Shown here piece by piece: positions 9,164-41,243 of a DNA stretch of 41,742 nt; within the stretch, counting starts at the first letter, position 1, and the number at the start of each line of letters is the position of its first letter. The notes under the pieces are model-generated. The model did not search any database, was not told where the DNA came from, and was given only the letters and a program-made list of their open reading frames with translations. Location of the stretch: contig PQXF01000011.1 of assembly GCA_003194445.1 (NCBI GenBank), positions 49,201-90,942 of the forward strand. Reading direction: 5' to 3'. A program made the position numbers and the translations under genes. Source of the stretch: Candidatus Methanogaster sp. Its GTDB lineage: Archaea > Halobacteriota > Methanosarcinia > Methanosarcinales > Methanogasteraceae.

Positions 9164-11035
9164 TCAGCCCACCTCAGCACTGCCGCCAACACCGGCACCA
9201 CCGAAACTCGTTCTCTGCACCACAGAATCAATGATGTTCACGACCTGCTTCTCCTCGATGATTCCGATCTCCTTTGCGGACTGAACAGAGCCAACGAGAT
9301 GCCGGATGCTTGCTGCAATCTCGTTTAAGAATCCGTGCAAGCCATGTGGCTTGTCTGAGTATGCTCTGAGTGCGATCCTGGTTATGTCTTTCTCTTTGTA
9401 CGGCTGGATTACAGCAGTGACGAGATAATACGCCCCCTCGCCAATCGATTCGCCTGCAAGGTTGAGGACAATCGTGTTATCTATCTCGTGTTCCCCGACT
9501 GTGTGAAGCCTGTGTGTGCAGGACTCTTTGATGAACGCTGCCGCCTCGTAAACCACAATTCCGCTGAACGAGAGTCCTTCCTCGATGTGTCTACTCTCCG
9601 CAGCAAGTTCCGCGAATTCGCCTTCAGTCAGGGCTTTTTCACGAAGGAACGGGCAGACGCAGTGAACCTCTTTTCCTCGCATCTGAACGGTGCATCTTTT
9701 GCCGGTGTGGTCTCTGTAGATTATGGTTGCGTCTATCTTTTCGTTGTGGACGCAACCCCTGGGCGTCAGCACGTATTTTGCAGTTCGCTCGCCATTCGGG
9801 TGGATGTTTGCAAGCGTCCGGACCCTATCACCTTTTAGCGAGAAGAGCGTTTTATCGTAGTCGAGTATCGTTTCCACGTCTGCAATCAGGTAAGGGGTTG
9901 GGTTGATTACGCGGATACCAAACCTGATGTCGTTGTTTGGCAGGACTTCGTAGCCACGTCTCACCTCGATTGCTGCGGACTCTCTTGTCGGTGTGGGTTC
10001 GGGCACTGGCTGCGGCGCCGGCTGTGGTGTTGGTGCTGGCTCTGGCGGAGGTGTGGGGTCGGGTGGTGCTGGTTGGGGGATTGGTTCCGGCGGCGGTGGT
10101 GATTGCGGAGCTGGCTTGGCAACGACGGTAGGTGCTGGCAGCGGAGTAGTTTTGGTTTCTCTGGTGGTAGATGGTTCAAATGTCGCGTCCCGCCGTTTTC
10201 CGCGGAGTTTTCCTGTAAGAAGCGCGATTGCGAGCAGTGCGATGATCGCGCCGCCTGCGAGTTTGAGCATCTGTGTGCTGTCATCGTCCGGTTTCTGGGC
10301 GGGTGTTGGCGTGGCGATCCGTGGAACTTGGGTTGCTGTCGGAAGGACGGTTGTGCTTGCGTTTGTGTAGATTCCGTTCCAGTTACCATTCTCGTCACGG
10401 AGAGATGCCCACACCAACGCACGATCATAAGTTTCGTCGACCTGATACGCGTTTAATGTGAAGACCGTTTCGTCGGTGCCGGAGATCGTTCTGTTTTCGT
10501 CATCTGCCAGTCGATCTTTGTCTGTATCGGATTTTTCGAGGCTTAAGACGAGTTTCCAGTTAGATGGGATGTTTTCCCAGCCAACCGTGACTTCTACACC
10601 TTCGCCTCCGCGAATTGTGAAGGGAGAGTCGAGGATGCGAACCGAGGGGGTCGTATCTATGCCCCCGACCTTTATCAGCCAGAAATTATACCCGCCAGAA
10701 CCGTACGAACTCATCTCTCCTGCAAGGATGTAGCCACCGTCGGAGGTCTGCTTGACTAAGTAAGCCTCATCGTCTTCAGTTCCTCCAAAGGTCTCATACC
10801 ATTCCTTGTTTCCATCGGAATCAGTTTTTACAAGCCAGAAATCAAGATCACAAGAACCGTACGATTCCGTATCTCCTGCAAGGATGTAGCCACCGTCAGA
10901 GGTCTGCTGGACCGAGTTTGCCCACTCGTTCCCAGTTCCACCAAATGCCTTGCTCCATTCTTCTTCAGGCGCCATTTCAGCACATACCACGTTCGCGAAT
11001 ACGAGCAACAGCACGATTCCGATGATACGTTTCAT
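9164..11035 (-). CDS. single-pass membrane protein: signal peptide, extracellular beta-propeller (SBBP-like) repeats, TM helix, Pro-rich linker, cytoplasmic C-terminal domain
   Basis: 623 aa; N-terminal MKRIIGIVLLLVFANVVCA; repeated QTSDGGYILAG...D.WL.K propeller blades; TM segment AGGAIIALLAIALLTG followed by KLRGKRRD; PAPQPVPEPTP-type linker; Cys/His-containing C-terminal domain. Confidence 0.6.
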   Translation of the reverse strand: MKRIIGIVLLLVFANVVCAEMAPEEEWSKAFGGTGNEWANSVQQTSDGGYILAGDTESYGSCDLDFWLVKTDSDGNKEWYETFGGTEDDEAYLVKQTSDGGYILAGEMSSYGSGGYNFWLIKVGGIDTTPSVRILDSPFTIRGGEGVEVTVGWENIPSNWKLVLSLEKSDTDKDRLADDENRTISGTDETVFTLNAYQVDETYDRALVWASLRDENGNWNGIYTNASTTVLPTATQVPRIATPTPAQKPDDDSTQMLKLAGGAIIALLAIALLTGKLRGKRRDATFEPSTTRETKTTPLPAPTVVAKPAPQSPPPPEPIPQPAPPDPTPPPEPAPTPQPAPQPVPEPTPTRESAAIEVRRGYEVLPNNDIRFGIRVINPTPYLIADVETILDYDKTLFSLKGDRVRTLANIHPNGERTAKYVLTPRGCVHNEKIDATIIYRDHTGKRCTVQMRGKEVHCVCPFLREKALTEGEFAELAAESRHIEEGLSFSGIVVYEAAAFIKESCTHRLHTVGEHEIDNTIVLNLAGESIGEGAYYLVTAVIQPYKEKDITRIALRAYSDKPHGLHGFLNEIAASIRHLVGSVQSAKEIGIIEEKQVVNIIDSVVQRTSFGGAGVGGSAEVG

Positions 11036-11961: not shown

Positions 11962-12110
11962 CTCAGCGTCCAACCCCCACCCCGCACTCCGTGCAGAACT
12001 TCGTCCCGATCGGAACCTCAGCACCACACTCAGAGCAGATAACAACCTTCCTAACCTCCTGCACATGCGGAACCGCTAGTGCAGGTGAAACACCTCCACC
12101 CACAACAACA
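11962..12110 (-). repeat. ~150-bp direct repeat, copy 1: degenerate duplicate of the 3' end (C-terminal zinc ribbon) of gene 12908..15043
   Basis: About 88 percent identical to 12913..13061. On the minus strand it encodes ...VVVGGGVSPALAVPHVQEVRKVVICSECGAEVPIGTKFCTECGVGVGR, a near copy of the last ~50 residues of the 711-aa protein, preceded by an in-frame stop. Confidence 0.6.
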
Positions 12111-12135
12111 CAACCAGTTATCCACCCCCTCCACA

Positions 12136-12465
12136 TCAAACCAGCCTCCTCGCACCCTTAAGAACGCTCTTTATGAACAGGTTATCCCTCTTCATCGCAT
12201 CAAACTCGTTCCTTGTGTAAACCAGTGGCTCTATCGGCAGATCAGTCAGATCAAGAATCTTTCCGATCCGGTCAAAGAACCGCTCCTTAAAGTTCCCGAC
12301 GATGATCAGGTCGATGTCGCTCCCCTCATGAATATCCCCCCTCACAAAAGAGCCGTACAGGTAAACCTCGCAGTTGAACCGTTCTCCGAGATCACCCGAG
12401 AATTCCTCTACCTCTTCGAGAATCTCTTCACGCTTTCCAATATCAACTCTGCGTAGCGTATGCAT
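12136..12465 (-). CDS. minimal nucleotidyltransferase (MNT)
   Basis: LYGSFVRGDIHEGSDIDLIIV motif; overlaps the 3' end of the upstream HEPN gene. Confidence 0.6.
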   Translation of the reverse strand: MHTLRRVDIGKREEILEEVEEFSGDLGERFNCEVYLYGSFVRGDIHEGSDIDLIIVGNFKERFFDRIGKILDLTDLPIEPLVYTRNEFDAMKRDNLFIKSVLKGARRLV

Positions 12466-12803
12466 TGTTCCGCATCCTCCATCTCATAGAATTCAGCAGG
12501 TGCTAACTCGCCAGCCAATCCGTCAGGATACCTTGTTGGGATGTAAAACATATCCAGATGGCGGGCATAAGATTCCACATCAGAAAAACCATTTTCTATC
12601 TTTTTGCACTCTCTCACCAATTCCTTGTTGGAGTGTGTTATAATCGAGGTGTACCCCTGCAAATAAAGGAAGAACTTGAGAGTCTTCTCTGCGGATTGCT
12701 GTGCCTGAAAACATGCCCAGTTATAGTGCCCGCTCTTCAAGCTATCCTTTGCGGCTTTCAGATCTTCTTCTGCCTGTGTGAGCCATTTCCTTGTCTCTCT
12801 CAT
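12408..12803 (-). CDS. HEPN-domain protein
   Basis: 131 aa; conserved HEPN helix (CFQAQQSAEKTLKFFL) and ...YIPTRYPDG motif; paired with the downstream MNT. Confidence 0.6.
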   Translation of the reverse strand: MRETRKWLTQAEEDLKAAKDSLKSGHYNWACFQAQQSAEKTLKFFLYLQGYTSIITHSNKELVRECKKIENGFSDVESYARHLDMFYIPTRYPDGLAGELAPAEFYEMEDAEQCIRYAELILESVKRFSKR

Positions 12804-12907: not shown

Positions 12908-15043
12908 TCATTCAGCTCGCCCAACCCCCGCCCCGCATTCCGTGCAGAACCTCGTCCCGACCGGAACCTCAGCCCCGCACTCAGAGCAGATAACGACCTT
13001 CCTGACCTCCTGCACCGGCGGTGCCGCTACTGGTGCAGGCGAAACACCTCCACCCACAACAACCGGCTGCCCGCTACCACTACCACCGCCCGTCACAACA
13101 GTCGTTCCGCCTGATGCCGCACCCTGCGCCCGTGTCGCAGCCGTGGTCCCCATCTGCCTGAGTGCTTCTGCCGTCATCCGCTCAACTCTGTCTCCGCCTT
13201 TGTCCGCCATCTCCTGTATCGTCCGTGCGAATGCGTCTTTGTCAGAGAGCCGATCCTCGTACATCCGCATGATCTCCTCAGCGCTCTTTGATCTGTACTT
13301 CTCCTTAAACGCATCGGCGATTGCCGCACTGTCCTTTGCCCCAAGAGCAAGTATCTGCTCCTCGGTAAGACCTGTCGCAAGCTTCATTCTCGCAAGTTCG
13401 CTCAGATGTTCCGCACCTTTCCCCTCCGAAACAGAGATGAGCGCCTCATCCGTAGCCGCTGAACGCGCCTTAAGCCGATCGGCCTCAAGATCGGCCTCTT
13501 TCTGCATCTTCTCAAGTTCGAGCGATTGGTAGCCAGCCACGTCCTCCCGTTTCGCTGCTTTCATCGCTTTTAGCAGTTCGATTCCTTCTCTCGCAGCTCT
13601 CGCATCTTCTTCGTCTTCTTTCCGCTCTTTCTCAACTTTGAGATCGTGCGCCTTTCGCTCCATCTCCAGTTCATGCAGACGACGTTTCGCGTCCATATCC
13701 AGATCGTGCGAGCGATGCTCTGCATCCATATCCAGTTCGTGCCGCTGTTCGATGCGACCTAACATCAATCTCCGTGCAACACTTCTATCCTCCCGGTTCT
13801 CCACGAATATCTGCTTGAGCTCAGCCATCTCGTTCTCTCGTATGACCTTGTCCCGGTCAAGCCCATACAGAAACGTCTCAAGCTCTTCCGCATTCCCGAG
13901 TTCATCCATCTTATCATCAGTCAGTCTTGCACGCATCCTCTTTGTGAGTCCAAGCCGCTTACTGTCGAGATCTTCTATCCCCTCGTCAATAACATATTCC
14001 CCTTCTTCAGACGTTAATTCTCTCTTTTTAGCGGCTACACGTTCTTCGTACTCGACCAGTTGCAGCTCGGAATCCTGCTTTATCTGCTCCCTCCTCCTGA
14101 TCAACTCTCGTGCAGACTCGCCCCGTGCACCGATTATATCGCCCCAGTAGCTCTCATCGTAGTCGAAATACGGCAGGTACACGAGGTTCAGACCAGTTCT
14201 TTCGAGCGTAGTCTTCAGCAGATGCTCAAAGTCCTGCTCGATCTCTTTCTTCAGTTCGAGATTGCCATACAGGTCCTCAAATGAATACTGCTTGACCTTC
14301 GGTTGCAACAGATTCGAGATCTCGCTTTCGAGCATCGCCTCAATGTCGGTCGTATCTATGCGTTCTCGCCCCTTCATCAGGTTGTTTGCGAAGAGTATCG
14401 GCGCCTCGACACCCACAACCATCTTGGCCATGACTCCTGAATCAAAGTTCTCCGCCGTTCTCAAGCCGCCGATCCTGAAGTCAAGCCGGACGTCCGAATC
14501 ATCCACAAGTATCACGGTTGCTCGCTCCCCGAAGTTCAGGTTCCGTATCGCATTGGTGAGCCCGCCGACCGTGTACGTCCCGGGCGTAAGTTCGCCTGTG
14601 AACCGTCCCCCCTGCAAAAATATCGCTTTCGTTCCCGGCATAACGGATATCTTCTTGCTAAAGACTCCTTTGATGTCGCTTACCTCAAACCGGCGTGCGA
14701 AGTCGAGCGGCTCTCTCCGCCACACCCTTACTTTGCCAGATTTTTCCGGCACCACCGCCGCCCTCACCCTCTCTTCTGCGGACTGAGTCATTCTGGCACC
14801 GCAGTTCGGGCAGAATTTGTGATCCGCGCCTACCGGCATGTCGCATTTGCTGCACATCATGCCGGATAGGAGATTTCCGCACTGTGAACAGAATTTACTC
14901 TTCTTGCTGTTCTCTGTTCCACAGTTACTGCACTTTATCTTGCCAAACATCTCTTTGGTACCTCCCTGTTCTACTTCAATTCCCCACCACAAAACGGGCA
15001 CATCTTCCACCCTTCTTCCACGTCCTGACCGCAGCCGGGGCAC
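12908..15043 (-). CDS. flotillin/SPFH (band 7) domain protein with N-terminal triple zinc ribbon, long EA/ER-rich coiled coil and C-terminal zinc ribbon
   Basis: 711 aa; N-terminal CSNCG...CSQCG...CSKCD...CPNCG; SPFH-like segment (VGVEAPILFANNL...DIEAMLESEISNLL...); about 300 aa of coiled coil with repeated HELDMDAEHRSHDLDMDAKRRLHELEME; C-terminal CSECGAEVPVGTRFCTECG. Confidence 0.6.
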   Translation of the reverse strand: MPRLRSGRGRRVEDVPVLWWGIEVEQGGTKEMFGKIKCSNCGTENSKKSKFCSQCGNLLSGMMCSKCDMPVGADHKFCPNCGARMTQSAEERVRAAVVPEKSGKVRVWRREPLDFARRFEVSDIKGVFSKKISVMPGTKAIFLQGGRFTGELTPGTYTVGGLTNAIRNLNFGERATVILVDDSDVRLDFRIGGLRTAENFDSGVMAKMVVGVEAPILFANNLMKGRERIDTTDIEAMLESEISNLLQPKVKQYSFEDLYGNLELKKEIEQDFEHLLKTTLERTGLNLVYLPYFDYDESYWGDIIGARGESARELIRRREQIKQDSELQLVEYEERVAAKKRELTSEEGEYVIDEGIEDLDSKRLGLTKRMRARLTDDKMDELGNAEELETFLYGLDRDKVIRENEMAELKQIFVENREDRSVARRLMLGRIEQRHELDMDAEHRSHDLDMDAKRRLHELEMERKAHDLKVEKERKEDEEDARAAREGIELLKAMKAAKREDVAGYQSLELEKMQKEADLEADRLKARSAATDEALISVSEGKGAEHLSELARMKLATGLTEEQILALGAKDSAAIADAFKEKYRSKSAEEIMRMYEDRLSDKDAFARTIQEMADKGGDRVERMTAEALRQMGTTAATRAQGAASGGTTVVTGGGSGSGQPVVVGGGVSPAPVAAPPVQEVRKVVICSECGAEVPVGTRFCTECGAGVGRAE
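12913..13061 (-). repeat. ~150-bp direct repeat, copy 2 (authentic 3' end of gene 12908..15043)
   Basis: See copy 1. The two copies bracket exactly the HEPN-MNT pair 12136..12803. Confidence 0.6.
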
Positions 15044-19360: not shown

Positions 19361-20404
19361 TCACCTCGTCCTGCCCCCGCCGGCGATATCGCCCCCAGCA
19401 ACCTGCTTATCCCGCCCAATCTCCCCCGTAAAATTCGCGATATGAAACACCTGCTGCCCCACCGTCTCTTCCGTCAATCGTGCCACCTGTATCCACGCCT
19501 CACCAACCGCAGTATCTCGTCGCCCCTGCATGTCCCTGTACTCGGCATAGATCTTGAACTCCATCCTGCCGTGTGGAAGTGGCTTCACCGAGAGCGCAAG
19601 CCCGGTCTCGTACTCCTGCTTCATCGTCTCAAGCGATGCGACAGTCTCGCCTTCCACAGGTGCGTCAAGCTTGATCTTCACATCCTTCGCAACGCCGTCC
19701 CCATTATTTACAATCCTGAGCAACACCCGCGAATACGTATCCTGCCTGAGATTATCAGTGGTCACGTCAACAGAGAGGTGGGGTGTGCCTGTGGTTTTGA
19801 TGCCTGTTATCTGTGATTCCGCTTCCAGAATGCCATATTCGCATGATTCTATATGCTCGATGCAGGTTTCTCGGCTATATTCCACATCTTGATCGAACTC
19901 CATTCGTAACGACTCGTTGAAGTGTTCAACTGCACTTTCAAGTAGTGGCAAACTCTCTTTATATGCAGAAAGCGCTTCATCCCAGTTAAAAACAGCCTCG
20001 GATGCCTTTGCAAGACAATGATGATAGAGTGCACGATCATGATATGCACCACCAATCATGGTATGATACGATGCAATATCATCCTGTTCTTCAGAGATTT
20101 CTGCCGCCTCCGCAATTGATGAGTGTGAAGGGAGTAAGTAGCTTGCAGCTTCCCTGAAATATTCCGCCTGTTCGCTGCCGGATGGTGCATCTACAACAAT
20201 ATTGTTTGCAAGTAACAGATACTTATTTCCCTCTGCCATACGTGCATCCTTGGTCCGGATCAACCTGCTTTCTTCTGTTTCTGCCCTCTCTGCTGCCTGC
20301 AGATAAAGAACGATTGCCATATCTAACAACTCGACCGCTTTGTCCACATCCTCTGTTCCGATTGCTCGATCGCAACATTCCTCTGCCTGTTCCCATAGTT
20401 CCAT
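19361..20404 (-). CDS. paralog C of a helical (TPR-like) domain family, fused to a beta domain and Gly-rich tail
   Basis: 347 aa; N-terminal 200 aa homologous to the two downstream-encoded paralogs (MELWEQA.../MELCEQA...); C-terminus ...[18 protein letters not shown]. Confidence 0.5.
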   Translation of the reverse strand: MELWEQAEECCDRAIGTEDVDKAVELLDMAIVLYLQAAERAETEESRLIRTKDARMAEGNKYLLLANNIVVDAPSGSEQAEYFREAASYLLPSHSSIAEAAEISEEQDDIASYHTMIGGAYHDRALYHHCLAKASEAVFNWDEALSAYKESLPLLESAVEHFNESLRMEFDQDVEYSRETCIEHIESCEYGILEAESQITGIKTTGTPHLSVDVTTDNLRQDTYSRVLLRIVNNGDGVAKDVKIKLDAPVEGETVASLETMKQEYETGLALSVKPLPHGRMEFKIYAEYRDMQGRRDTAVGEAWIQVARLTEETVGQQVFHIANFTGEIGRDKQVAGGDIAGGGRTR

Positions 20405-20410
20405 CTCTTT

Positions 20411-21028
20411 TCACCTCACAGATCGCCTCTTCGCTTTCGCTTCCCGAATGCCTGCTCTGCACAATTTCATGTAGTCAAGGCAGTCTTTTCGGCTCTTCCT
20501 CCGATCCCTGTTGGATTCGATCTGCAGGGACTTATTAATATGCTTAAGCGCGGTTTTAAGAATAGAGAGCGCCTCCTTGTAGCCAGAGAGCGCAGATTTC
20601 GTGTCACCAACCGCATAAGATGCCCATGCAAGATAATAATGATGGAATGCCTGATCAGTATATGCGATACCAAGCCTGTTGTAATACGGAGCCTGGTAGC
20701 CTTGTTCTTTGACGATTTCCGCTGCTTCCGTTCGCGATGAAACTGCTGTAAGCATCTGATCCGCAGCCTCTTTCAGATAACCTGCCTGCTTACTTCCGGA
20801 CGACGCAATTGCAGCGTCAACAAGTTTGCTAGCAATCATGGTGCATCTATTCGCCTCTGAATTCCTTGCATTCCCTATGCAAGCTGCTCTTTGCACTTCT
20901 GTTATATCTTGCTCTGCTGACTGCAGCCAGAGTGAGATCGCCTTATCCAGGAGCTTGATCGCAACATCTTCATTCCGTGCTTTAGCTGCTTCATCCTTGT
21001 ATTTTGCTGCCTGTTCACATAGTTCCAT
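20411..21028 (-). CDS. paralog B, helical repeat protein
   Basis: 205 aa; clearly homologous to 21035..21661 at the protein level, with near-identical nucleotide blocks (e.g. ttaagaatagagagcgcctccttgtagccaga at 20560 and 21180); 6-nt spacing to neighbours. Confidence 0.5.
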   Translation of the reverse strand: MELCEQAAKYKDEAAKARNEDVAIKLLDKAISLWLQSAEQDITEVQRAACIGNARNSEANRCTMIASKLVDAAIASSGSKQAGYLKEAADQMLTAVSSRTEAAEIVKEQGYQAPYYNRLGIAYTDQAFHHYYLAWASYAVGDTKSALSGYKEALSILKTALKHINKSLQIESNRDRRKSRKDCLDYMKLCRAGIREAKAKRRSVR

Positions 21029-21034
21029 TTCTAT

Positions 21035-21661
21035 TCACCTCGCGGACCGCATCTTCGATCTCACACCTTGAATGCTCGCTCTGCACCATTCCATGTAGTC
21101 AAGACAGTCGTTTCGGTTGTCCTCCCTATCGCTGTTGGATTCTATTCGCAGTGACTTATTAAAATGCCCAAGCGCGGTTTTAAGAATAGAGAGCGCCTCC
21201 TTGTAGCCAGAAAGCGCAGTATCCAGATCACCAACCGCATCAGACGCCCATGCATGATAGTAAGAATAGAATGCCTTATTCGAATGTACAATACCGAGCC
21301 TGTTGTAATACACAGCAGAGTATCCATATTCTCTGGCGGTTTCTGCTGCTTCCATCCTGAGCAAACTGGCTTTGAGCATCTGATCCGCAGCCTCTTTCAG
21401 ATAACCAGCCTCAACGTCCCCTGATGACGCTCTTGCCTTATCAACAAGTTTGTTCGCAAACATAACACTTCTGTTCGCCTCCGCAGTCCTTGCATTCCCA
21501 ATATTAAGTGTTCTTGACATCTCTGTTTCACCTTGCTCCGCTGCCTGCAGCCAGAGCAAGATCACCTTATCAAGGAGCTTGATCGCCTCGTCACTATCTT
21601 CTGTCCTGCGTGCTCGATCCTTTAACTCCATCGCCTCGTCCCCGGGTTTCACTTCTTTCAC
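21035..21661 (-). CDS. paralog A, helical repeat protein
   Basis: 208 aa; see paralog B; start overlaps the upstream gene by 4 nt. Confidence 0.5.
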   Translation of the reverse strand: MKEVKPGDEAMELKDRARRTEDSDEAIKLLDKVILLWLQAAEQGETEMSRTLNIGNARTAEANRSVMFANKLVDKARASSGDVEAGYLKEAADQMLKASLLRMEAAETAREYGYSAVYYNRLGIVHSNKAFYSYYHAWASDAVGDLDTALSGYKEALSILKTALGHFNKSLRIESNSDREDNRNDCLDYMEWCRASIQGVRSKMRSAR

Positions 21662-31112: not shown

Positions 31113-31234
31113 GACGCCAACCCGGCAAATACAAATATGATTAGATGGGTGAAATCAGTGAAACCGGTGTTAATCTGTGGCTAAAATAGTATCAGCCACG
31201 GATTAACGTAGATGAACACCGATTAGCGGCGTAA

Positions 31235-31409
31235 ATTACTTTTCAGATCGACAGTGCTCCATTATAGTAGTTGTGGTTGGATTGCACCAGATCTCGTGAC
31301 TCCCTTTTGCTTGCCTATCGAAGACGAATCCTGCTCTCTTTAACTTCCTGATAACATCTCTTGTGGTCAGGGATGATAATCTCGTCGGGCGGTCACACTT
31401 ATCGGTATT
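31235..31409 (-). pseudogene. HicA-like toxin remnant (no start codon, truncated C-terminus)
   Basis: A minus-strand frame reads ...RDVIRKLKRAGFVFDRQAKGSHEIWCNPTTTT, the HicA core motif (GF...RQ.GSH). There is no in-frame ATG/GTG/TTG between the upstream stop and the motif. The ORF ends ~15 residues earlier than typical HicA and overlaps the 3' end of hicB. Confidence 0.35.
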
Positions 31410-31660
31410 TTAACGTCTTGCATAACGTTTTGTGATGACTCAATCTCATACGGCAGAGGACCGCCATGCTCGACATAGGACTCGATTAGTTTTCTTGCAA
31501 CATCCTGTGCTATCTCCACCGTCTCTGCTATCGACCTTCCCTGTGCGATGAGTCCCTGAAGGGTATTGCCCGTTGCAAGATAGCCACCTTCTTCCGGTTT
31601 TTCTATTTTTATGGATATGATGTATTCAGACATCTTCACCACATCGAGTTGTTTTTGCAC
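31367..31660 (-). CDS. HicB-family antitoxin (UPF0150)
   Basis: YLATGNTLQGLIAQGRSIAETVEIAQDVARKLIESYVEHGGPLP matches the HicB N-domain pattern (YlA..p.lpG...qG.T.eEA..n..eai); the real start is probably MSEYIISI (31633). Confidence 0.55.
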   Translation of the reverse strand: MQKQLDVVKMSEYIISIKIEKPEEGGYLATGNTLQGLIAQGRSIAETVEIAQDVARKLIESYVEHGGPLPYEIESSQNVMQDVKIPISVTARRDYHP

Positions 31661-31704
31661 CGTCGGTAATCGCTTTTCGTATGGCTTTTGGAGATGCTTC
31701 GCAT

Positions 31705-32040
31705 TCAGTTTGGCTCCGCGGATGTGTTGAAATTGGACAATCTCGAGTATAAATCTATGTTACCAGCCACCGCCTGCAGGATCGTGAGAACGCCCGAGGC
31801 AGTGACACGGTCATCACCGCTCACATCGGCAGCGGTGAATGTCGCGGGGTCGCACGGGCGGCTGCCGGTGGCTAATCGAAGCGCGATCGCGGCGTCTGCG
31901 GGGGTGATCTGGTTGTCGCGGCCCGAGGTCGTCCTTGTAGTGGTTCGCAGTACGCAGTAACCGTTTCGGGCGTGGGTGTGGTGATGTCTGCACCATAGCG
32001 GGCGCTTGAGCTTCATGAGCAGTGTCAGCAGAACCAGCAC
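31705..32040 (-). pseudogene. dockerin-module gene fragment
   Basis: The C-terminal 55 aa form a type-I dockerin pair of Ca-binding repeats (DNQITPADAAIALRLATGS ... ADVSGDDRVTASGVLTILQAVAG). The N-terminal part of the ORF is non-protein-like (WCRHHHTHARNGYCVLRTTT). Confidence 0.3.
31775..31925 (-). repeat. ~150-bp direct repeat copy 1 (dockerin-coding segment)
   Basis: Approximately 80-85 percent nucleotide identity to 32945..33100 (e.g. the shared segment ccgcctgcaggatcgtgaga...gtcgcacgggcggctgccggtggcta); the two copies bracket the AT-rich two-gene cassette. Confidence 0.55.
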
Positions 32041-32202
32041 CGTATGAACTTATGCCCCTCCAATGATGTAGCCACTATCTGTCTGCTGGACCGATTTTCG
32101 GGAGAGTTTATTTCATTGCGGCATTTTAATGTTTTATATATTGGATAGATGTGGTCGATAACTTTTAAACCAGAAGGTTACACATATAAAGGTACTAAAT
32201 AA

Positions 32203-32496
32203 ATGGTGAATGAAATGGCAATATCATTAGAAGAAGCTGCAACAATGCTCCATATGAAAAAAGAGACACTTATGGGAGAGGGGTTAAAAGCTTATTTGAA
32301 AGAGAGGGTTCGCGGATTAAAAGTCGAAATTGCAGCAATCTATCTGAGATATGGAGTATCATCTATTGGGGAACTGGACGAGAAGATAAACAGAGGCGAG
32401 TTGAGCGAAAGCGATACTTTTGATGACTTCACGAGACTTGATTATCTGGAAGGGAGAAAAGATAAAATAAGACATATCCTGGAGAAATTAATGTGA
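32203..32496 (+). CDS. small protein, first gene of an AT-rich two-gene cassette (possible antitoxin-like partner)
   Basis: 97 aa; stop overlaps the start of the next ORF by 4 nt (ATGA); GC content far below flanks. Confidence 0.4.
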   Translation: MVNEMAISLEEAATMLHMKKETLMGEGLKAYLKERVRGLKVEIAAIYLRYGVSSIGELDEKINRGELSESDTFDDFTRLDYLEGRKDKIRHILEKLM

Positions 32497-32849
32497 GTTA
32501 CGGTGAACTGGCTGATATTGCCGAAGATGAGTTCTTTGATGTTGTCCTTTACTCACAAATTGTAGCAGGAAAGCTTCGTTTGCACATTGTTGATGAAAGT
32601 TATCTGGATGTTTGGTTCTCTGTGAAAATCAGGGGTAGGTTTGCATATCATTGGGAAAGAAGAGTGATAGACGGGAGCATTTACAGATATGACAACCGGC
32701 CTCACGAAAAATTGAGAGATATGAAAAGCTTTCCGAAGCACTTTCATGACGGAAGCGATGATGCGATAAGAGAAGGAGAATTCGGTGAAGATTCAAAGGA
32801 TATTTTAAGAGCTTTTTTACAGATTGTCAGGGCAAAAATTCATCGTTAA
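32493..32849 (+). CDS. small conserved protein, second gene of the cassette (possible toxin-like component; DUF-type family, identity unverified)
   Basis: 118 aa; His-rich motifs HWERRVIDGSIYRYDNRPHEKL and FPKHFHDGSDD; translational coupling with the upstream gene. Confidence 0.4.
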   Translation: MSYGELADIAEDEFFDVVLYSQIVAGKLRLHIVDESYLDVWFSVKIRGRFAYHWERRVIDGSIYRYDNRPHEKLRDMKSFPKHFHDGSDDAIREGEFGEDSKDILRAFLQIVRAKIHR

Positions 32850-32889
32850 GAGATGAGAATCAGAAACATCATGCTTCCATGGAATCCTG

Positions 32890-33177
32890 TCATCGCGGCT
32901 GGCCCCGATTGTACGATCTCATAAGTTGGAGCGTTATCGTGCCAGCCGCCGCCTGCAGGATCGTGAGAGCGTCGAGGGAAGTGACGTGGTCATCGCCACT
33001 GACATCGGCGGCGGCGAGTGTCGTGGCGTCGCACGGGCGGCTGCCGGTGGCTATCTGGAGCGCGATCACTGCGTCTGCGGGGGTGAGGGTGCCGTCGCGG
33101 TTGAGGTCACTTTTCAGTGCTGGAGATTCTATTATGTGAGAAATCATATTTTGGATAGTCATATAATTTGTATTCAA
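32890..33177 (-). CDS. small dockerin-module protein or gene fragment
   Basis: 95 aa containing a complete dockerin repeat pair (DLNRDGTLTPADAVIALQIATGS ... ADVSGDDHVTSLDALTILQAAAG) but no signal peptide and no catalytic or adhesion module. Confidence 0.35.
   Translation of the reverse strand: MNTNYMTIQNMISHIIESPALKSDLNRDGTLTPADAVIALQIATGSRPCDATTLAAADVSGDDHVTSLDALTILQAAAGTITLQLMRSYNRGQPR
32945..33100 (-). repeat. ~150-bp direct repeat copy 2 (dockerin-coding segment)
   Basis: see copy 1. Confidence 0.55.
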
Positions 33178-33952
33178 ATCCGCTCACGGTGTCGAGCACT
33201 TCTTTAAAAATGTTTTTCATTGGAGACTTGAACCAATAGTTACACATAATAATCTCATTTGTTGGTTGTTGGCTTATCATTAGATTTAAGTTATATTTAT
33301 AAAATAAAATTCCTGACAATTTTGGGGTTTCATCGACAAATTTCATTGCATTCTCGATATATTCTTCTCTTTCCGGGAGCGCCCCCACATTGACTAAAAA
33401 TATAGCATCTCCATCAGTTTCGTCGAAATCAGACAGTTTCTTATCTATCTTAACTCTTAAATTACTGACATCTGAAGTATCGCCACCTGGAAAATACACT
33501 TCTACATATACTTGTTTACCATCGCTGCACACAGCCAGATCAAAATCCCCATCACCCACATTTGGCTCAAATTCATAAGACCATGAGCTCAATTTGAAAG
33601 CCATTGCAATACGCAACTCTTCCAATGTCCTGTAGAACTCTTGATGATCACCCTTGCATTTTACAATTTTTCTTCGTATTGTTTTAATTTCAGATGAATC
33701 TGGATTAAGTTCTTCTACAAAGTTAAGGAGATTTAAAATCAAAACATACTCATATATATAACTTCCTTTTACGATTTGATCCCATACATTCTGTACCGAT
33801 TTATCATTTAACTCGTCTAAAGTTACCGGATCAGAGATAAACCTCATGAGAGGGTGAGCCCCATCTCTTTCTATTTCACTAAAATCAGTCCCAAGCAACA
33901 ATTTTATTATTTTCTTTCTTGACGGCTTTCTATCCACATTAAACACCCCCAA
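33107..33952 (-). CDS. hypothetical protein encoded in an AT-rich island
   Basis: 281-aa ORF; strongly AT-rich codon usage unlike the flanking genes; possible nuclease-like D...EVY segment (GDGDFDLAVCSDGKQVYVEVY), not verifiable by eye. Confidence 0.4.
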   Translation of the reverse strand: MGVFNVDRKPSRKKIIKLLLGTDFSEIERDGAHPLMRFISDPVTLDELNDKSVQNVWDQIVKGSYIYEYVLILNLLNFVEELNPDSSEIKTIRRKIVKCKGDHQEFYRTLEELRIAMAFKLSSWSYEFEPNVGDGDFDLAVCSDGKQVYVEVYFPGGDTSDVSNLRVKIDKKLSDFDETDGDAIFLVNVGALPEREEYIENAMKFVDETPKLSGILFYKYNLNLMISQQPTNEIIMCNYWFKSPMKNIFKEVLDTVSGFEYKLYDYPKYDFSHNRISSTEK

Positions 33953-33990
33953 TTCACCGTTTCCGCTCCGTTACAGAAGATTATCATAAT

Positions 33991-34120
33991 CGAGCACATC
34001 AGCGTTTGTAGATTCCCATGGACTCTCGTACCACAGTACACGCCACAAACGCGGGCGGGCTTATCTTCTGTGTTCGGAATGGGTACAGGAGTTGCCCCGC
34101 CGCTATGGCCGATGTGCTCG
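33991..34120 (-). rRNA. 5S ribosomal RNA
   Basis: The minus-strand sequence CGAGCACATCGGCCATAGCGGCGGGGCAACTCCTGTACCCATTCCGAACACAGAAGATAAGCCCGCCCGCGTTTGTGGCGTGTACTGTGGTACGAGAGTCCATGGGAATC...GCTGATGTGCTCG carries the universal 5S motifs (CCGAACAC, GTACTG.GG, GGGAA) and a terminal helix I. Confidence 0.85.
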
Positions 34121-34204
34121 TATATTTCCATGTATCAACGTACGACCCAGATATCGCCTGAATTGAACCGACCGAAGTCGGCTCATACATCCAGTGATCT
34201 TACT

Positions 34205-37160
<2,956 letters not shown>

Positions 37161-37388
37161 TCCGTCTTACTAATTCAGTAAGCGTCTGGGTCGCACGTAT
37201 ACATGGCTTCATCAAGCGAGATACAGGTATCTCGCTCTTCACCCTTCCATGACAATGCGTATTTGCCATGTGCATCATAAATCACGTAACATAAGAGTGC
37301 TACCAACATACGTTGGGGGCTTGGAAGATAAAGGTTTCGCCGATGTAGCGCCAAAGTGCATAAGGTGGACGGGCGATGACACGGAAGT

Positions 37389-40957: not shown

Positions 40958-41142
40958 TGGGTCTTCGAATTCCGCGAATATGGCTGTCAGAATCCGTATC
41001 CACTTCAAAAAGCATGGTAAAACTCATCTCCAGTCTTTCTAAAAATATACGAAAAACATCAATCTGTGTTCATATCAAGTAGGGCCCATAGCACACCTCT
41101 TGTTTGGGGTAATGGCCCCGAGGTTACCGTGAGCCCCCTCAC

Positions 41143-41176
41143 AGAACCGGACTTGAAGATTTCCCTCATCCGGCTC
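41143..41176 (-). other. group II intron catalytic domain V hairpin
   Basis: The minus-strand RNA reads GAGCCGGAUGAGGGAAAUCUUCAAGUCCGGUUCU: AGC catalytic triad, GAAA tetraloop, 2-nt bulge on the 3' strand, and a basal helix GAGCCGGA/UCCGGUUC with an A·U and a G·U at the triad. Confidence 0.6.
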
Positions 41177-41243
41177 TTCAGAAGCACATCCTCTACAGAT
41201 TCAGGTGTATAGTGATTGATATATCTTCGGCTTCGGGAGCGGA

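Follow-up and report, generated by a model that had tools for sequence, protein, structure and literature searches.

The chromosome of Candidatus Methanogaster sp., a methane-oxidising archaeon, carries a small toxin-antitoxin operon that is bracketed by two direct repeats, each coding for a dockerin module. The operon was studied in a stretch of 41,742 nucleotides (nt) from contig PQXF01000011.1 (positions 49,201 to 90,942; hereafter the window), and the 1,179-bp segment that holds it was found to be an insertion with chimeric flanks, in which one part of each dockerin repeat belongs to the host and the other part to the incoming DNA. Both the insertion and its topology are well established by comparison with relatives that have no cassette at this site. 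As to how the segment arrived, we lean slightly towards the integration of a cassette together with a portable dockerin 'handle' through one reciprocal crossover, performed by the homologous recombination machinery of the host.

A repeat search of the window aligned positions 31756-31921 (copy A, minus strand, distal to a 281-amino-acid [aa] gene) with 32935-33100 (copy B, minus strand) without gaps over 166 nt at 81% identity. Outside these sharp edges, identity fell to a background of 20-35%, in agreement with the original prediction, which had placed dockerin direct repeats at 31775-31925 and 32945-33100. The longest exact blocks shared by the copies are 25 nt (31850-31874 and 33029-33053) and 20 nt (31770-31789 and 32949-32968), and the G+C content of the repeats is 66-70%. 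When translated on the minus strand, both copies were found to be dockerin modules: copy B scored 36 bits against PF00404, above the gathering cut-off, and has the calcium-binding loops DLNRDG and DVSGDD, while copy A scored 19.4 bits, below the cut-off, with its first loop degraded to SGRDNQ. The differences between the copies are spread evenly over the codon positions (10/10/12), with a ratio of nonsynonymous to synonymous substitution rates (dN/dS) of 0.67. Across comparisons, dN/dS of the dockerin copies ranged from 0.39 to 0.91; the upper value is that of copy A between the window and L141, a contig of a sister lineage in which the same site is filled, and suggests neutral evolution of copy A between the lineages. 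Each copy sits in an open reading frame (ORF) with 25-43 unrelated residues upstream and is not attached to a secreted catalytic or structural protein, and the closest protein relatives of copy B (81 of 81) are ORFs of 42-127 aa. Neither dockerin ORF is intact, as both are 5′-truncated remnants. The upstream ORF is therefore the fragment it was first taken for; the downstream one, described at first as encoding only a dockerin, proved to be a truncated remnant as well (32890-33177, minus strand; stand-alone, and overlapping, in a different frame, the 281-aa ORF at its end).

The empty state of the site was identified in three contigs from the ENA (L009, L010, and L011; 89-91% identical to the window), which were reached via P0004, a dockerin-B-like protein sharing the odd N-terminus. 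All three display the order 5S rRNA gene, 281-aa gene, single dockerin, HicB-like gene, and histidine kinase, with no cassette; in L009, positions 1-1217 match window positions 34148-32943 and positions 1074-1708 match 31907-31273. Cassette-free relatives carry one dockerin ORF here; two separately conserved ORFs, which had been named beforehand as a finding that would speak against an integrated module, were not seen in them. In a three-way alignment of the empty site with the two copies, the upstream flank of the empty site was 96% identical to that of copy B and 35% identical to that of copy A, and informative sites in the dockerin body favored copy B at 20 positions and copy A at 6. The tail gave the opposite result (94% to copy A, 45% to copy B; informative sites about 45 to 1 for copy A), and the contrast between body and tail was pronounced (Fisher p = 1e-11). 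As far as the ILQAAA codons the empty-site dockerin tracks copy B, and afterwards copy A, with the switch falling within a 6-nt interval (last copy-B-type site at column 254 and first copy-A-type site at column 260 of alignment A2). On the window, the crossover falls 3′ of GCGGCGGCTG, and its interval corresponds to (i) 31764-31768 in copy A, CAGCC, the reverse complement of the GGCTG just after the ILQAAA codons; and (ii) 32943-32947 in copy B. These are the two ends of the insertion, and since both junctions coincide at one alignment position, 1,179 bp apart, a single reciprocal exchange is indicated. By the same alignment, the body of copy A (31769-31921, minus strand) arrived with the cassette, the last few codons of copy A and everything below ~31763 (minus strand) are host sequence, and the body of copy B (32948-33100) is host-derived. 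Copy A and copy B are 76.6% and 85.7% identical to the empty site, respectively. From these comparisons, copy A appears to be a different dockerin paralogue that was imported with the cassette and not a duplicate of the target. The proposal that a two-gene module integrated, and that such events are tied to duplicated gene 3′ ends, is upheld by the empty sites of this and a second locus (L009-L011 and L139/L140) and by the recurrence of the layout; its assumption that the dockerin repeats arose by duplication of the target does not extend to copy A.

Because integration and excision mirror each other, an outgroup is required for polarity. In L077, a GoM-Arc1 contig, an ORF of >996 aa ends in the same dockerin, with the HicB-like region directly after it; this is the only contig in which the intact state was seen. 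The empty state is read as ancestral because the dockerin of the large L077 gene directly adjoins the HicB-like region; similarly, because L077 keeps this ORF intact, the 'dockerin-only' ORF of the host is read as the remnant of a large surface-protein gene. An assembly artefact was also considered and ruled out: the arrangement is not of this kind because an independent assembly, Logan contig L001, is 100% identical to the window over 31170-34277, and the filled locus L141 is 93% identical.

The inserted DNA was found to comprise five parts: the tail, tumE with tumA, an AT-rich region of ~100 nt, a G+C-rich scrap, and the copy A body. The segment at 32101-32934 has a G+C content of 39% compared with 49.5% for the window and 66-70% for the repeats, and two genes on the plus strand (32203-32496 and 32493-32849), overlapping by 4 nt, are its only ORFs; the AT-rich insert with two coupled small genes is thus real. 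By profile matches, which had been suggested at the outset as a check, the products are an MJ0235-family antitoxin and a TumE toxin. The tumA-like antitoxin gene (32203-32496) encodes 97 aa and has a recorded PF27273 match, and tumE (32493-32849) encodes a 118-aa protein of the DUF6516/TumE family that matches PF20126 at E = 4e-13 and 49.6 bits (gathering score 23.4) over profile positions 4-77 of 81. Against NF045777, the NCBIfam equivalog model of characterised TumE, the same protein scored 18.3 bits (cut-off 90), and it is best regarded as a distant member of the TumE family rather than an equivalog. About 100 homologues of the toxin were found, and the antitoxin-toxin pairing is conserved in L099, L109, L110, L116, L141, and L143. 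Between the window and L141, dN/dS was 0.14 for tumA and 0.60 for tumE, and tumA appears from this ratio to be under purifying selection. TumE-TumA is a validated toxin-antitoxin superfamily, in which TumE blocks translation in Escherichia coli and TumA neutralises it (Durairaj et al. 2023, PMC10584680). The pair examined here is similar in its above-threshold PF20126 match and in the small overlapping gene upstream; it differs in that the tested examples are proteobacterial, in that its partner belongs to the MJ0235 family, and in that its toxin and antitoxin roles are predicted from sequence.

Upstream of the operon, the AT-rich stretch at 32101-32202 (plus strand) probably serves as the cassette promoter, with TATA-like boxes at 32132-32142 and 32183-32192. 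The antitoxin is likely to start at 32215, since homologous antitoxins begin with MAIS or MAVS, and the second box lies ~28 nt ahead of this codon. The G+C-rich non-coding scrap (31922-32100, minus strand; ~180 nt, 55% G+C) lies upstream of copy A and was carried by the insertion; at 35% identity it is unrelated to the upstream flank of the host. Part of it (~31972-32092) is 72% identical to positions 10066-10191 of the Methanogaster contig L004, within the gene of an 841-aa dockerin-bearing protein, and the scrap accordingly includes a fragment of another surface-protein gene. Because the match is to the gene of a large dockerin-bearing protein, the cassette seems to have brought its own piece of another dockerin gene, which may have supplied the homology for integration. 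At the other end, the element tail from the tumE stop codon to the junction (32850-32942; 93 nt) is unrelated to the empty-site tail (45% identity), and it pairs with the dockerin 3′ end in an imperfect hairpin at 32885-32960 (DNA fold z = -3.4). Apart from the dockerin-gene scrap, the compact insert holds no decayed gene fragments.

Two further filled loci were informative with regard to the mechanism. In L091, a second and independent event in which the cassette carries an ATPase gene, comparison with the empty contig L088 revealed the same topology as in the window, with a crossover ~20 nt further 5′. This crossover lies inside GACGCTCTCATGATCCTGCA, 5′ of the QAAA codons (CAG/CAA GCx GCx GCx), whereas that of the window lies downstream of them; crossovers were mapped in these two events. 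L141 harbors the same cassette at the same site. Compared with the window, its element is 94-96% identical (cassette 95.5%, scrap 94.5%, and tail 95.7%), its host flank 89.7%, and its copy A 79.7%. The cassette is more conserved than the host flank (p = 0.003, or p = 0.04 when the non-coding parts only are used), which would be consistent with a cassette that possibly spread between the lineages later. The 3′ half of copy A in L141 is of host type and identical to its own copy B at 43 of 43 positions, with a breakpoint at the 25-nt identity block, a pattern that indicates gene conversion between the two repeats.

The layout was found to recur. A dockerin-alignment scan of GTDB genomes yielded 80 loci in metagenome-assembled genomes (MAGs) of ANME-2c (a group of anaerobic methanotrophic archaea, ANME), GoM-Arc1, Syntrophoarchaeum, and Methanophagales. 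These hold 124 dockerin segments in 640 kb: 62 terminate long ORFs, 45 belong to short remnant ORFs, and in 34 the 5′ side of the domain is cut short. Of 33 cases in which neighboring segments are separated by less than 3 kb, 32 have both on one strand, and in cassette cases the gaps between segments are mostly 0.4-1.7 kb. The cargo of the gaps includes PIN with a partner, AF2212-like with PIN, DUF4258 with an MqsA-like zinc-finger protein (two loci), RHH with a partner, and TumA/TumE, as well as a 358-aa ATPase_2/MJ1010-like gene (five loci). Dockerin remnants that separate toxin-antitoxin or ATPase cassettes are a recurrent feature of ANME-2 and GoM-Arc1 genomes. A related observation was made in L033 (2131-2511), L051 (1164-1391), and L025 (799-1524), where new sequence is fused directly after the MILQAAAG motif of the dockerin, as the ORFs start in this motif and run on into new domains: a thioredoxin-like domain in L033, an EF-hand-like domain in L051, and a 241-aa protein in L025.

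A parallel case is present in the window itself. The repeat-cassette-repeat structure noted around 12136-12803 was confirmed, with repeats at 11967-12110 and 12918-13061 that are 81% identical without gaps and ~87% when one 3-nt indel is allowed. The repeats and this cassette are on the minus strand. The cassette (12136-12803) encodes HEPN (12408-12803; PF05168, 2e-31) and MNT (12136-12465; PF01909, 2e-12); the upstream repeat copy (12918-13061) forms the functional 3′ end of a Zn-ribbon/SPFH gene of 711 aa (12908-15043), and a displaced in-frame remnant of the last ~50 codons of this gene lies downstream of the cassette (11963-12115). A second MNT/HEPN pair is next to the first. Both pairs are interpreted as insertions because in the empty-site contigs L139 and L140 (90-92% amino acid identity) the Zn-ribbon/SPFH gene is directly followed by the next gene, with no cassette between them. 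The two repeat copies are equally near to the empty site (88.0% and 89.4%), and a crossover could not be mapped, as the informative sites form a mosaic of 7 to 7. In L140 (~8030), compared with L139 (~8030), the Zn-ribbon/SPFH gene was also observed to switch to another C-terminal tail immediately behind the CTECG codons, at the point where the window copies diverge (12918-12930), which suggests a recurrent breakpoint after these codons.

TumA/TumE cassettes were also detected in unrelated metagenome contigs, with flanking direct repeats made of local sequence. In L133 the repeats are an SHMT-GcvT fusion gene's 3′ end (92-99% identical), in L099 a whole DUF2283 gene (91%), and in L109 the 5′ end of the next gene. 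Around the closest TumE homologues from JGI no dockerin flanks were found, though many carry other direct repeats. Among these contigs, the ends of L110 (1-1324) are 100% identical over 108 bp and enclose a 1,216-bp unit of a HicB-like gene, tumA, and tumE; L110 is a circular molecule or, alternatively, a cassette with identical repeats at its borders. The closest TumE relatives (P0190-P0203) are almost only on contigs of 0.6-1.4 kb, as would be expected if cassette-bounding repeats break assemblies. TumE homologues in L115 (4373-7160), L138, and L101-L104 stand beside arrays of direct repeats, 60-130 bp long and recurring every 0.7-1 kb, which are integron-like in layout, with no attC core motifs evident. 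In L143 (3600-10300; Methanosarcinales) a run of small modules was seen, the majority of them with domains of toxin-antitoxin type (Uma2, MJ0235/TumE, DUF5678 with a partner, DUF433/DUF5615, and CopG-like), and between them there are short repeats only (40-106 bp).

A recombinase, attachment site, or vector was searched for at several levels. No integrase or recombinase was present among the 30 window ORFs scanned with Pfam, both ORFs of the insert are non-recombinase, and the families listed for 54 array neighbors were housekeeping genes only, with no recombinase among them. The possibility that the repeats form attC-like hairpins was rejected, as folding each repeat as single-stranded DNA, on either strand, gave z = -0.6 to -1.7; no GTTRRRY core was seen in the sequence at the junction, and other dockerin ends did not show the hairpin at 32885-32960. 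It was likewise discounted that the ILQAAAG codons are constrained at the DNA level in the manner of a recombinase site, their synonymous-codon entropy being no lower than that of other conserved columns, and a viral vector was set aside when no dockerin or TumE relatives were detected on IMG/VR contigs. The nucleotide of crossover is not fixed, given that the window and L091 differ. Variable crossovers, conversion, and the lack of a recombinase and of hairpins in these searches favor homologous recombination at the longest identity blocks over a fixed-site recombinase.

The mechanism we lean towards may be outlined as follows. The incoming unit, from ~31764/31769 to ~32942/32947, would consist of the promoter, the MJ0235-family antitoxin, the TumE toxin, the tail, and a handle, the latter being a scrap of a foreign dockerin-bearing gene. 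Its target would be an existing dockerin remnant between the 281-aa gene and the HicB-like gene, downstream of the 23S-5S rRNA genes. The DNA most likely arrived as a small circle of one dockerin repeat and one cassette, which would enter in a Campbell-style integration by one reciprocal crossover within the 20-nt identity block coding for LTILQAA at the dockerin 3′ end; the predicted circle junction joins the copy A body to the element tail, ...CTCTCACGATCCTGCAGGCGGTGGCTGG|CACGATAACGCTCCAACTTATGAG. Two diverged direct repeats would result, the upstream one composed of host body and element tail and the downstream one of element body and host tail. As dockerin 3′ ends are numerous and conserved at the DNA level in ANME-2 and GoM-Arc1, they may act as portable homology on which cassettes accumulate into short arrays, and the toxin-antitoxin pair should penalise loop-out loss between the repeats. 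The circle, the dependence on homologous recombination, and the stabilisation by addiction are each presumed here. A broader version, in which ANME-2 and GoM-Arc1 maintain a recombinase-independent, integron-like economy of toxin-antitoxin and defence cassettes with handles cut from conserved gene 3′ ends (here dockerin modules, of which each genome has many), circle excision, re-entry at any paralogous handle of the same genome or a related one, arrays, and a toxin that punishes loss, is put forward tentatively, as less likely than not; if true, it would offer a general and testable answer to how chromosomal toxin-antitoxin modules move with no transposase.

Several points weigh against integration through an imported handle. 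No circular form was seen in the assembled sequences that were covered; integration and loop-out excision being exact reverses, polarity is set by one outgroup locus together with base composition; and recombination at only ~80% identity works poorly in those organisms for which measurements exist. The two mapped crossovers share a stretch of ~40 nt at the dockerin 3′ end, as they would with a loosely site-preferring recombinase. L141 also fits a true 78-bp target duplication with later conversion in the lineage of the window, and the HEPN/MNT locus looks like a true long target duplication and not like imported homology. In addition, contigs L004 and L080 were tried as a crossover map and abandoned, as their 1.9-kb array difference is not reducible to simple exchanges inside repeats.

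Some of these points belong to an alternative that we consider unlikely at the dockerin locus, in which a linear cassette was joined at two staggered positions of the target, giving a genuine long target duplication, and later conversion from paralogues made copy A look foreign. Such duplications are documented for addictive restriction-modification modules that have no mobility genes (PMC2853133). They would account for the equal similarity of the HEPN/MNT copies to the empty site (88% and 89%), for the near-identical flanks of local sequence in L133 (92-99%), L099 (91%), and L110 (100%), and for the host-type sequence that L141 has in both copies over at least 43 nt. However, copy A of the window is unlike the host type throughout its body (77% compared with 86%) and is contiguous with the scrap of a foreign gene, which cannot be a duplicate of the target; the junctions coincide within 6 nt, as expected of one reciprocal exchange and not of two independent joins; and the identity between the L141 copies is more simply explained as conversion from copy B, 1.1 kb away. 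A site-specific recombinase encoded elsewhere (integron-like, or a tyrosine or serine integrase), with the dockerin 3′ end as its attachment site and the cassettes as its cargo or as the last piece of a decayed element, seems to us rather improbable. The array-like layout, the size of 0.7-1.4 kb, and the toxin-antitoxin content are what chromosomal integron arrays typically show, the 40 nt of strongest conservation in the dockerin contain both mapped crossovers, and an imperfect hairpin spans the junction (32885-32960, z = -3.4). Moreover, integrases classically insert elements into the 3′ end of a gene and provide a substitute for it, as for e14 and phage 21 in icd. Yet the searches revealed no integrase in the window and none recurring near the arrays, the crossovers are at different nucleotides, the repeats are not significantly structured (z = -0.6 to -1.7), the junction hairpin is absent at other dockerin ends, the HEPN/MNT cassette uses a wholly different repeat (a Zn-ribbon gene end), and the only decayed gene fragment in the compact insert is the dockerin-gene scrap.

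We regard as very improbable that no insertion took place, with paralogous remnants and a toxin-antitoxin pair merely adjacent and the region between the repeats deleted in relatives. Remnant dockerin ORFs are common in these genomes, and the single chimeric dockerin of L009 is exactly what would be left by a loop-out at the identity block, between copies B and A. This account conflicts with L077, where the dockerin of the intact large gene is directly before the HicB-like region, with the foreign composition of the cassette, with its better conservation than the host flank in L141 (95.5% compared with 89.7%, p = 0.003), and with the repetition of the layout at many unrelated loci with different cassettes.

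With regard to the genomic setting, the site is flanked by the HicB-like host gene (31367-31660, minus strand; a weak PF15919 match), which is syntenic in L009 and in the outgroup L077, and, on the rRNA side, by the 281-aa ORF (33107-33952, minus strand), which is also present in the empty-site contigs. The latter is AT-rich (35% G+C), has no family match, lies between the 5S gene and copy B, and is kept in L009; it may be an older insertion that cut short the large dockerin gene. The 5S (33994-34116) and 23S (34213-37164) rRNA genes are on the minus strand; no 16S gene was observed beside them (33994-37164), and protein genes begin directly upstream of the 23S gene. Housekeeping genes in the window include an isoleucyl-type tRNA synthetase, Ogg, and an ADP-dependent kinase, and the nearest relatives of its proteins and loci are in MAGs labelled ANME-2, Methanogaster (ANME-2c), Methanosarcinales, and GoM-Arc1. 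A group II intron catalytic domain (RF00029, 50.6 bits) was detected at 41074-41178 on the minus strand, close to the window end. Repeats at 20272-21661, which are 73-93% identical in a 624-bp register, correspond to two adjacent paralogous genes (20411-21028 and 21035-21661) and represent an ordinary tandem gene duplication with no cassette.

Toxin-antitoxin modules are among the most mobile of prokaryotic genes, usually have no transposase or integrase of their own, and have spread by means that were long unclear. The dockerin locus provides a concrete case, with natural before and after states, a mapped junction, ongoing repeat conversion, and many parallels, and suggests that short conserved coding ends can be portable homology for minimal cassettes. 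The many tiny 'dockerin-only' ORFs in ANME annotations would then be recombination scars and not genes, which affects the dockerin and cohesin counts used in studies of the cell surface, and cassettes of this type may account for metagenome assemblies that are broken into pieces of ~1 kb. Searches of the literature turned up no direct precedent for toxin-antitoxin cassettes flanked by duplicated gene ends, nor for dockerin-flanked ones in ANME.

Integron gene cassettes, which depend on attC and IntI, are known from archaea as well (Ghaly et al. 2022, PMC9668308). The cassettes described here are similar in being ~1 kb in size, often of toxin-antitoxin type, and associated with one repeat each in same-orientation arrays, with a presumed circle of repeat and cassette. 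They differ in that no IntI is nearby, the repeats are coding remnants devoid of attC hairpin symmetry, each cassette appears to have its own promoter, the crossovers vary, and unrelated repeats are used elsewhere. IS26 translocatable units, reportedly described by Harmer, Moran, and Hall in 2014 with a RecA-dependent route beside the transposase route, likewise are circles of one repeat and cargo that integrate beside another repeat to give direct-repeat arrays, if the presumed circle is accepted here; however, the IS26 repeat is an insertion sequence that encodes the enzyme, whereas the repeat here is an inert dockerin fragment. In the Rhs/CDI polymorphic toxin loci, C-terminal displacement and orphan modules are said to have been reported by Jackson et al. 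in 2009 and Poole et al. in 2011. There too an incoming coding piece recombines into a resident gene and the old 3′ part is displaced downstream as a promoterless remnant, leaving small toxin/immunity modules between direct repeats of coding fragments. The Rhs/CDI toxin is fused to the conserved region, in contrast to the extreme C-terminal dockerin and the separate, self-expressed operon, sometimes on the opposite strand, that are seen here. Unlike e14 and phage 21 in icd, the element has no integrase of its own and no fixed crossover position in the two mapped events. Integrons, IS26 units, and Rhs/CDI modules are best viewed as functional analogues, each of which misses a defining feature here.

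The nearest counterpart among known processes is the insertion of restriction-modification units with long target duplication in bacteria, described by Furuta, Abe, and Kobayashi in 2010 (PMC2853133). Their cases are addictive modules with no mobility gene, imperfect direct repeats of 30-420 bp that often lie over a gene 3′ end, single-copy empty sites in relatives, and a deviant G+C content; their screen kept no archaeal case, and the event was attributed to DNA breakage by the restriction enzyme. Reports of long target duplication concern bacteria only, with its mechanism unknown (PMC2853133, PMC3874152). The dockerin locus resembles this process in its 1,179-bp insert (<20 kb) of tumA and tumE only with no mobility gene, in repeats longer than 30 bp (166 bp), and in the single copy at the empty sites L009-L011, and the HEPN/MNT locus does likewise relative to L139/L140. 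It differs in its toxin-antitoxin cargo, its archaeal host, and its imported paralogous second repeat, as well as in dockerin repeats that form a genome-wide multi-copy family and allow reuse of sites and arrays. Nobusato et al. (2000) are reportedly also to be named for restriction-modification insertion of this kind. Both repeats are target copies at the HEPN/MNT locus (88.0% and 89.4%) but not at the dockerin locus (76.6% and 85.7%, with a foreign scrap). The HEPN/MNT cassette and the TumE loci of L133 and L099 closely fit long target duplication and, if this correspondence is true, the life-cycle idea that Kobayashi proposed for it would extend from bacterial restriction-modification to archaeal toxin-antitoxin systems.

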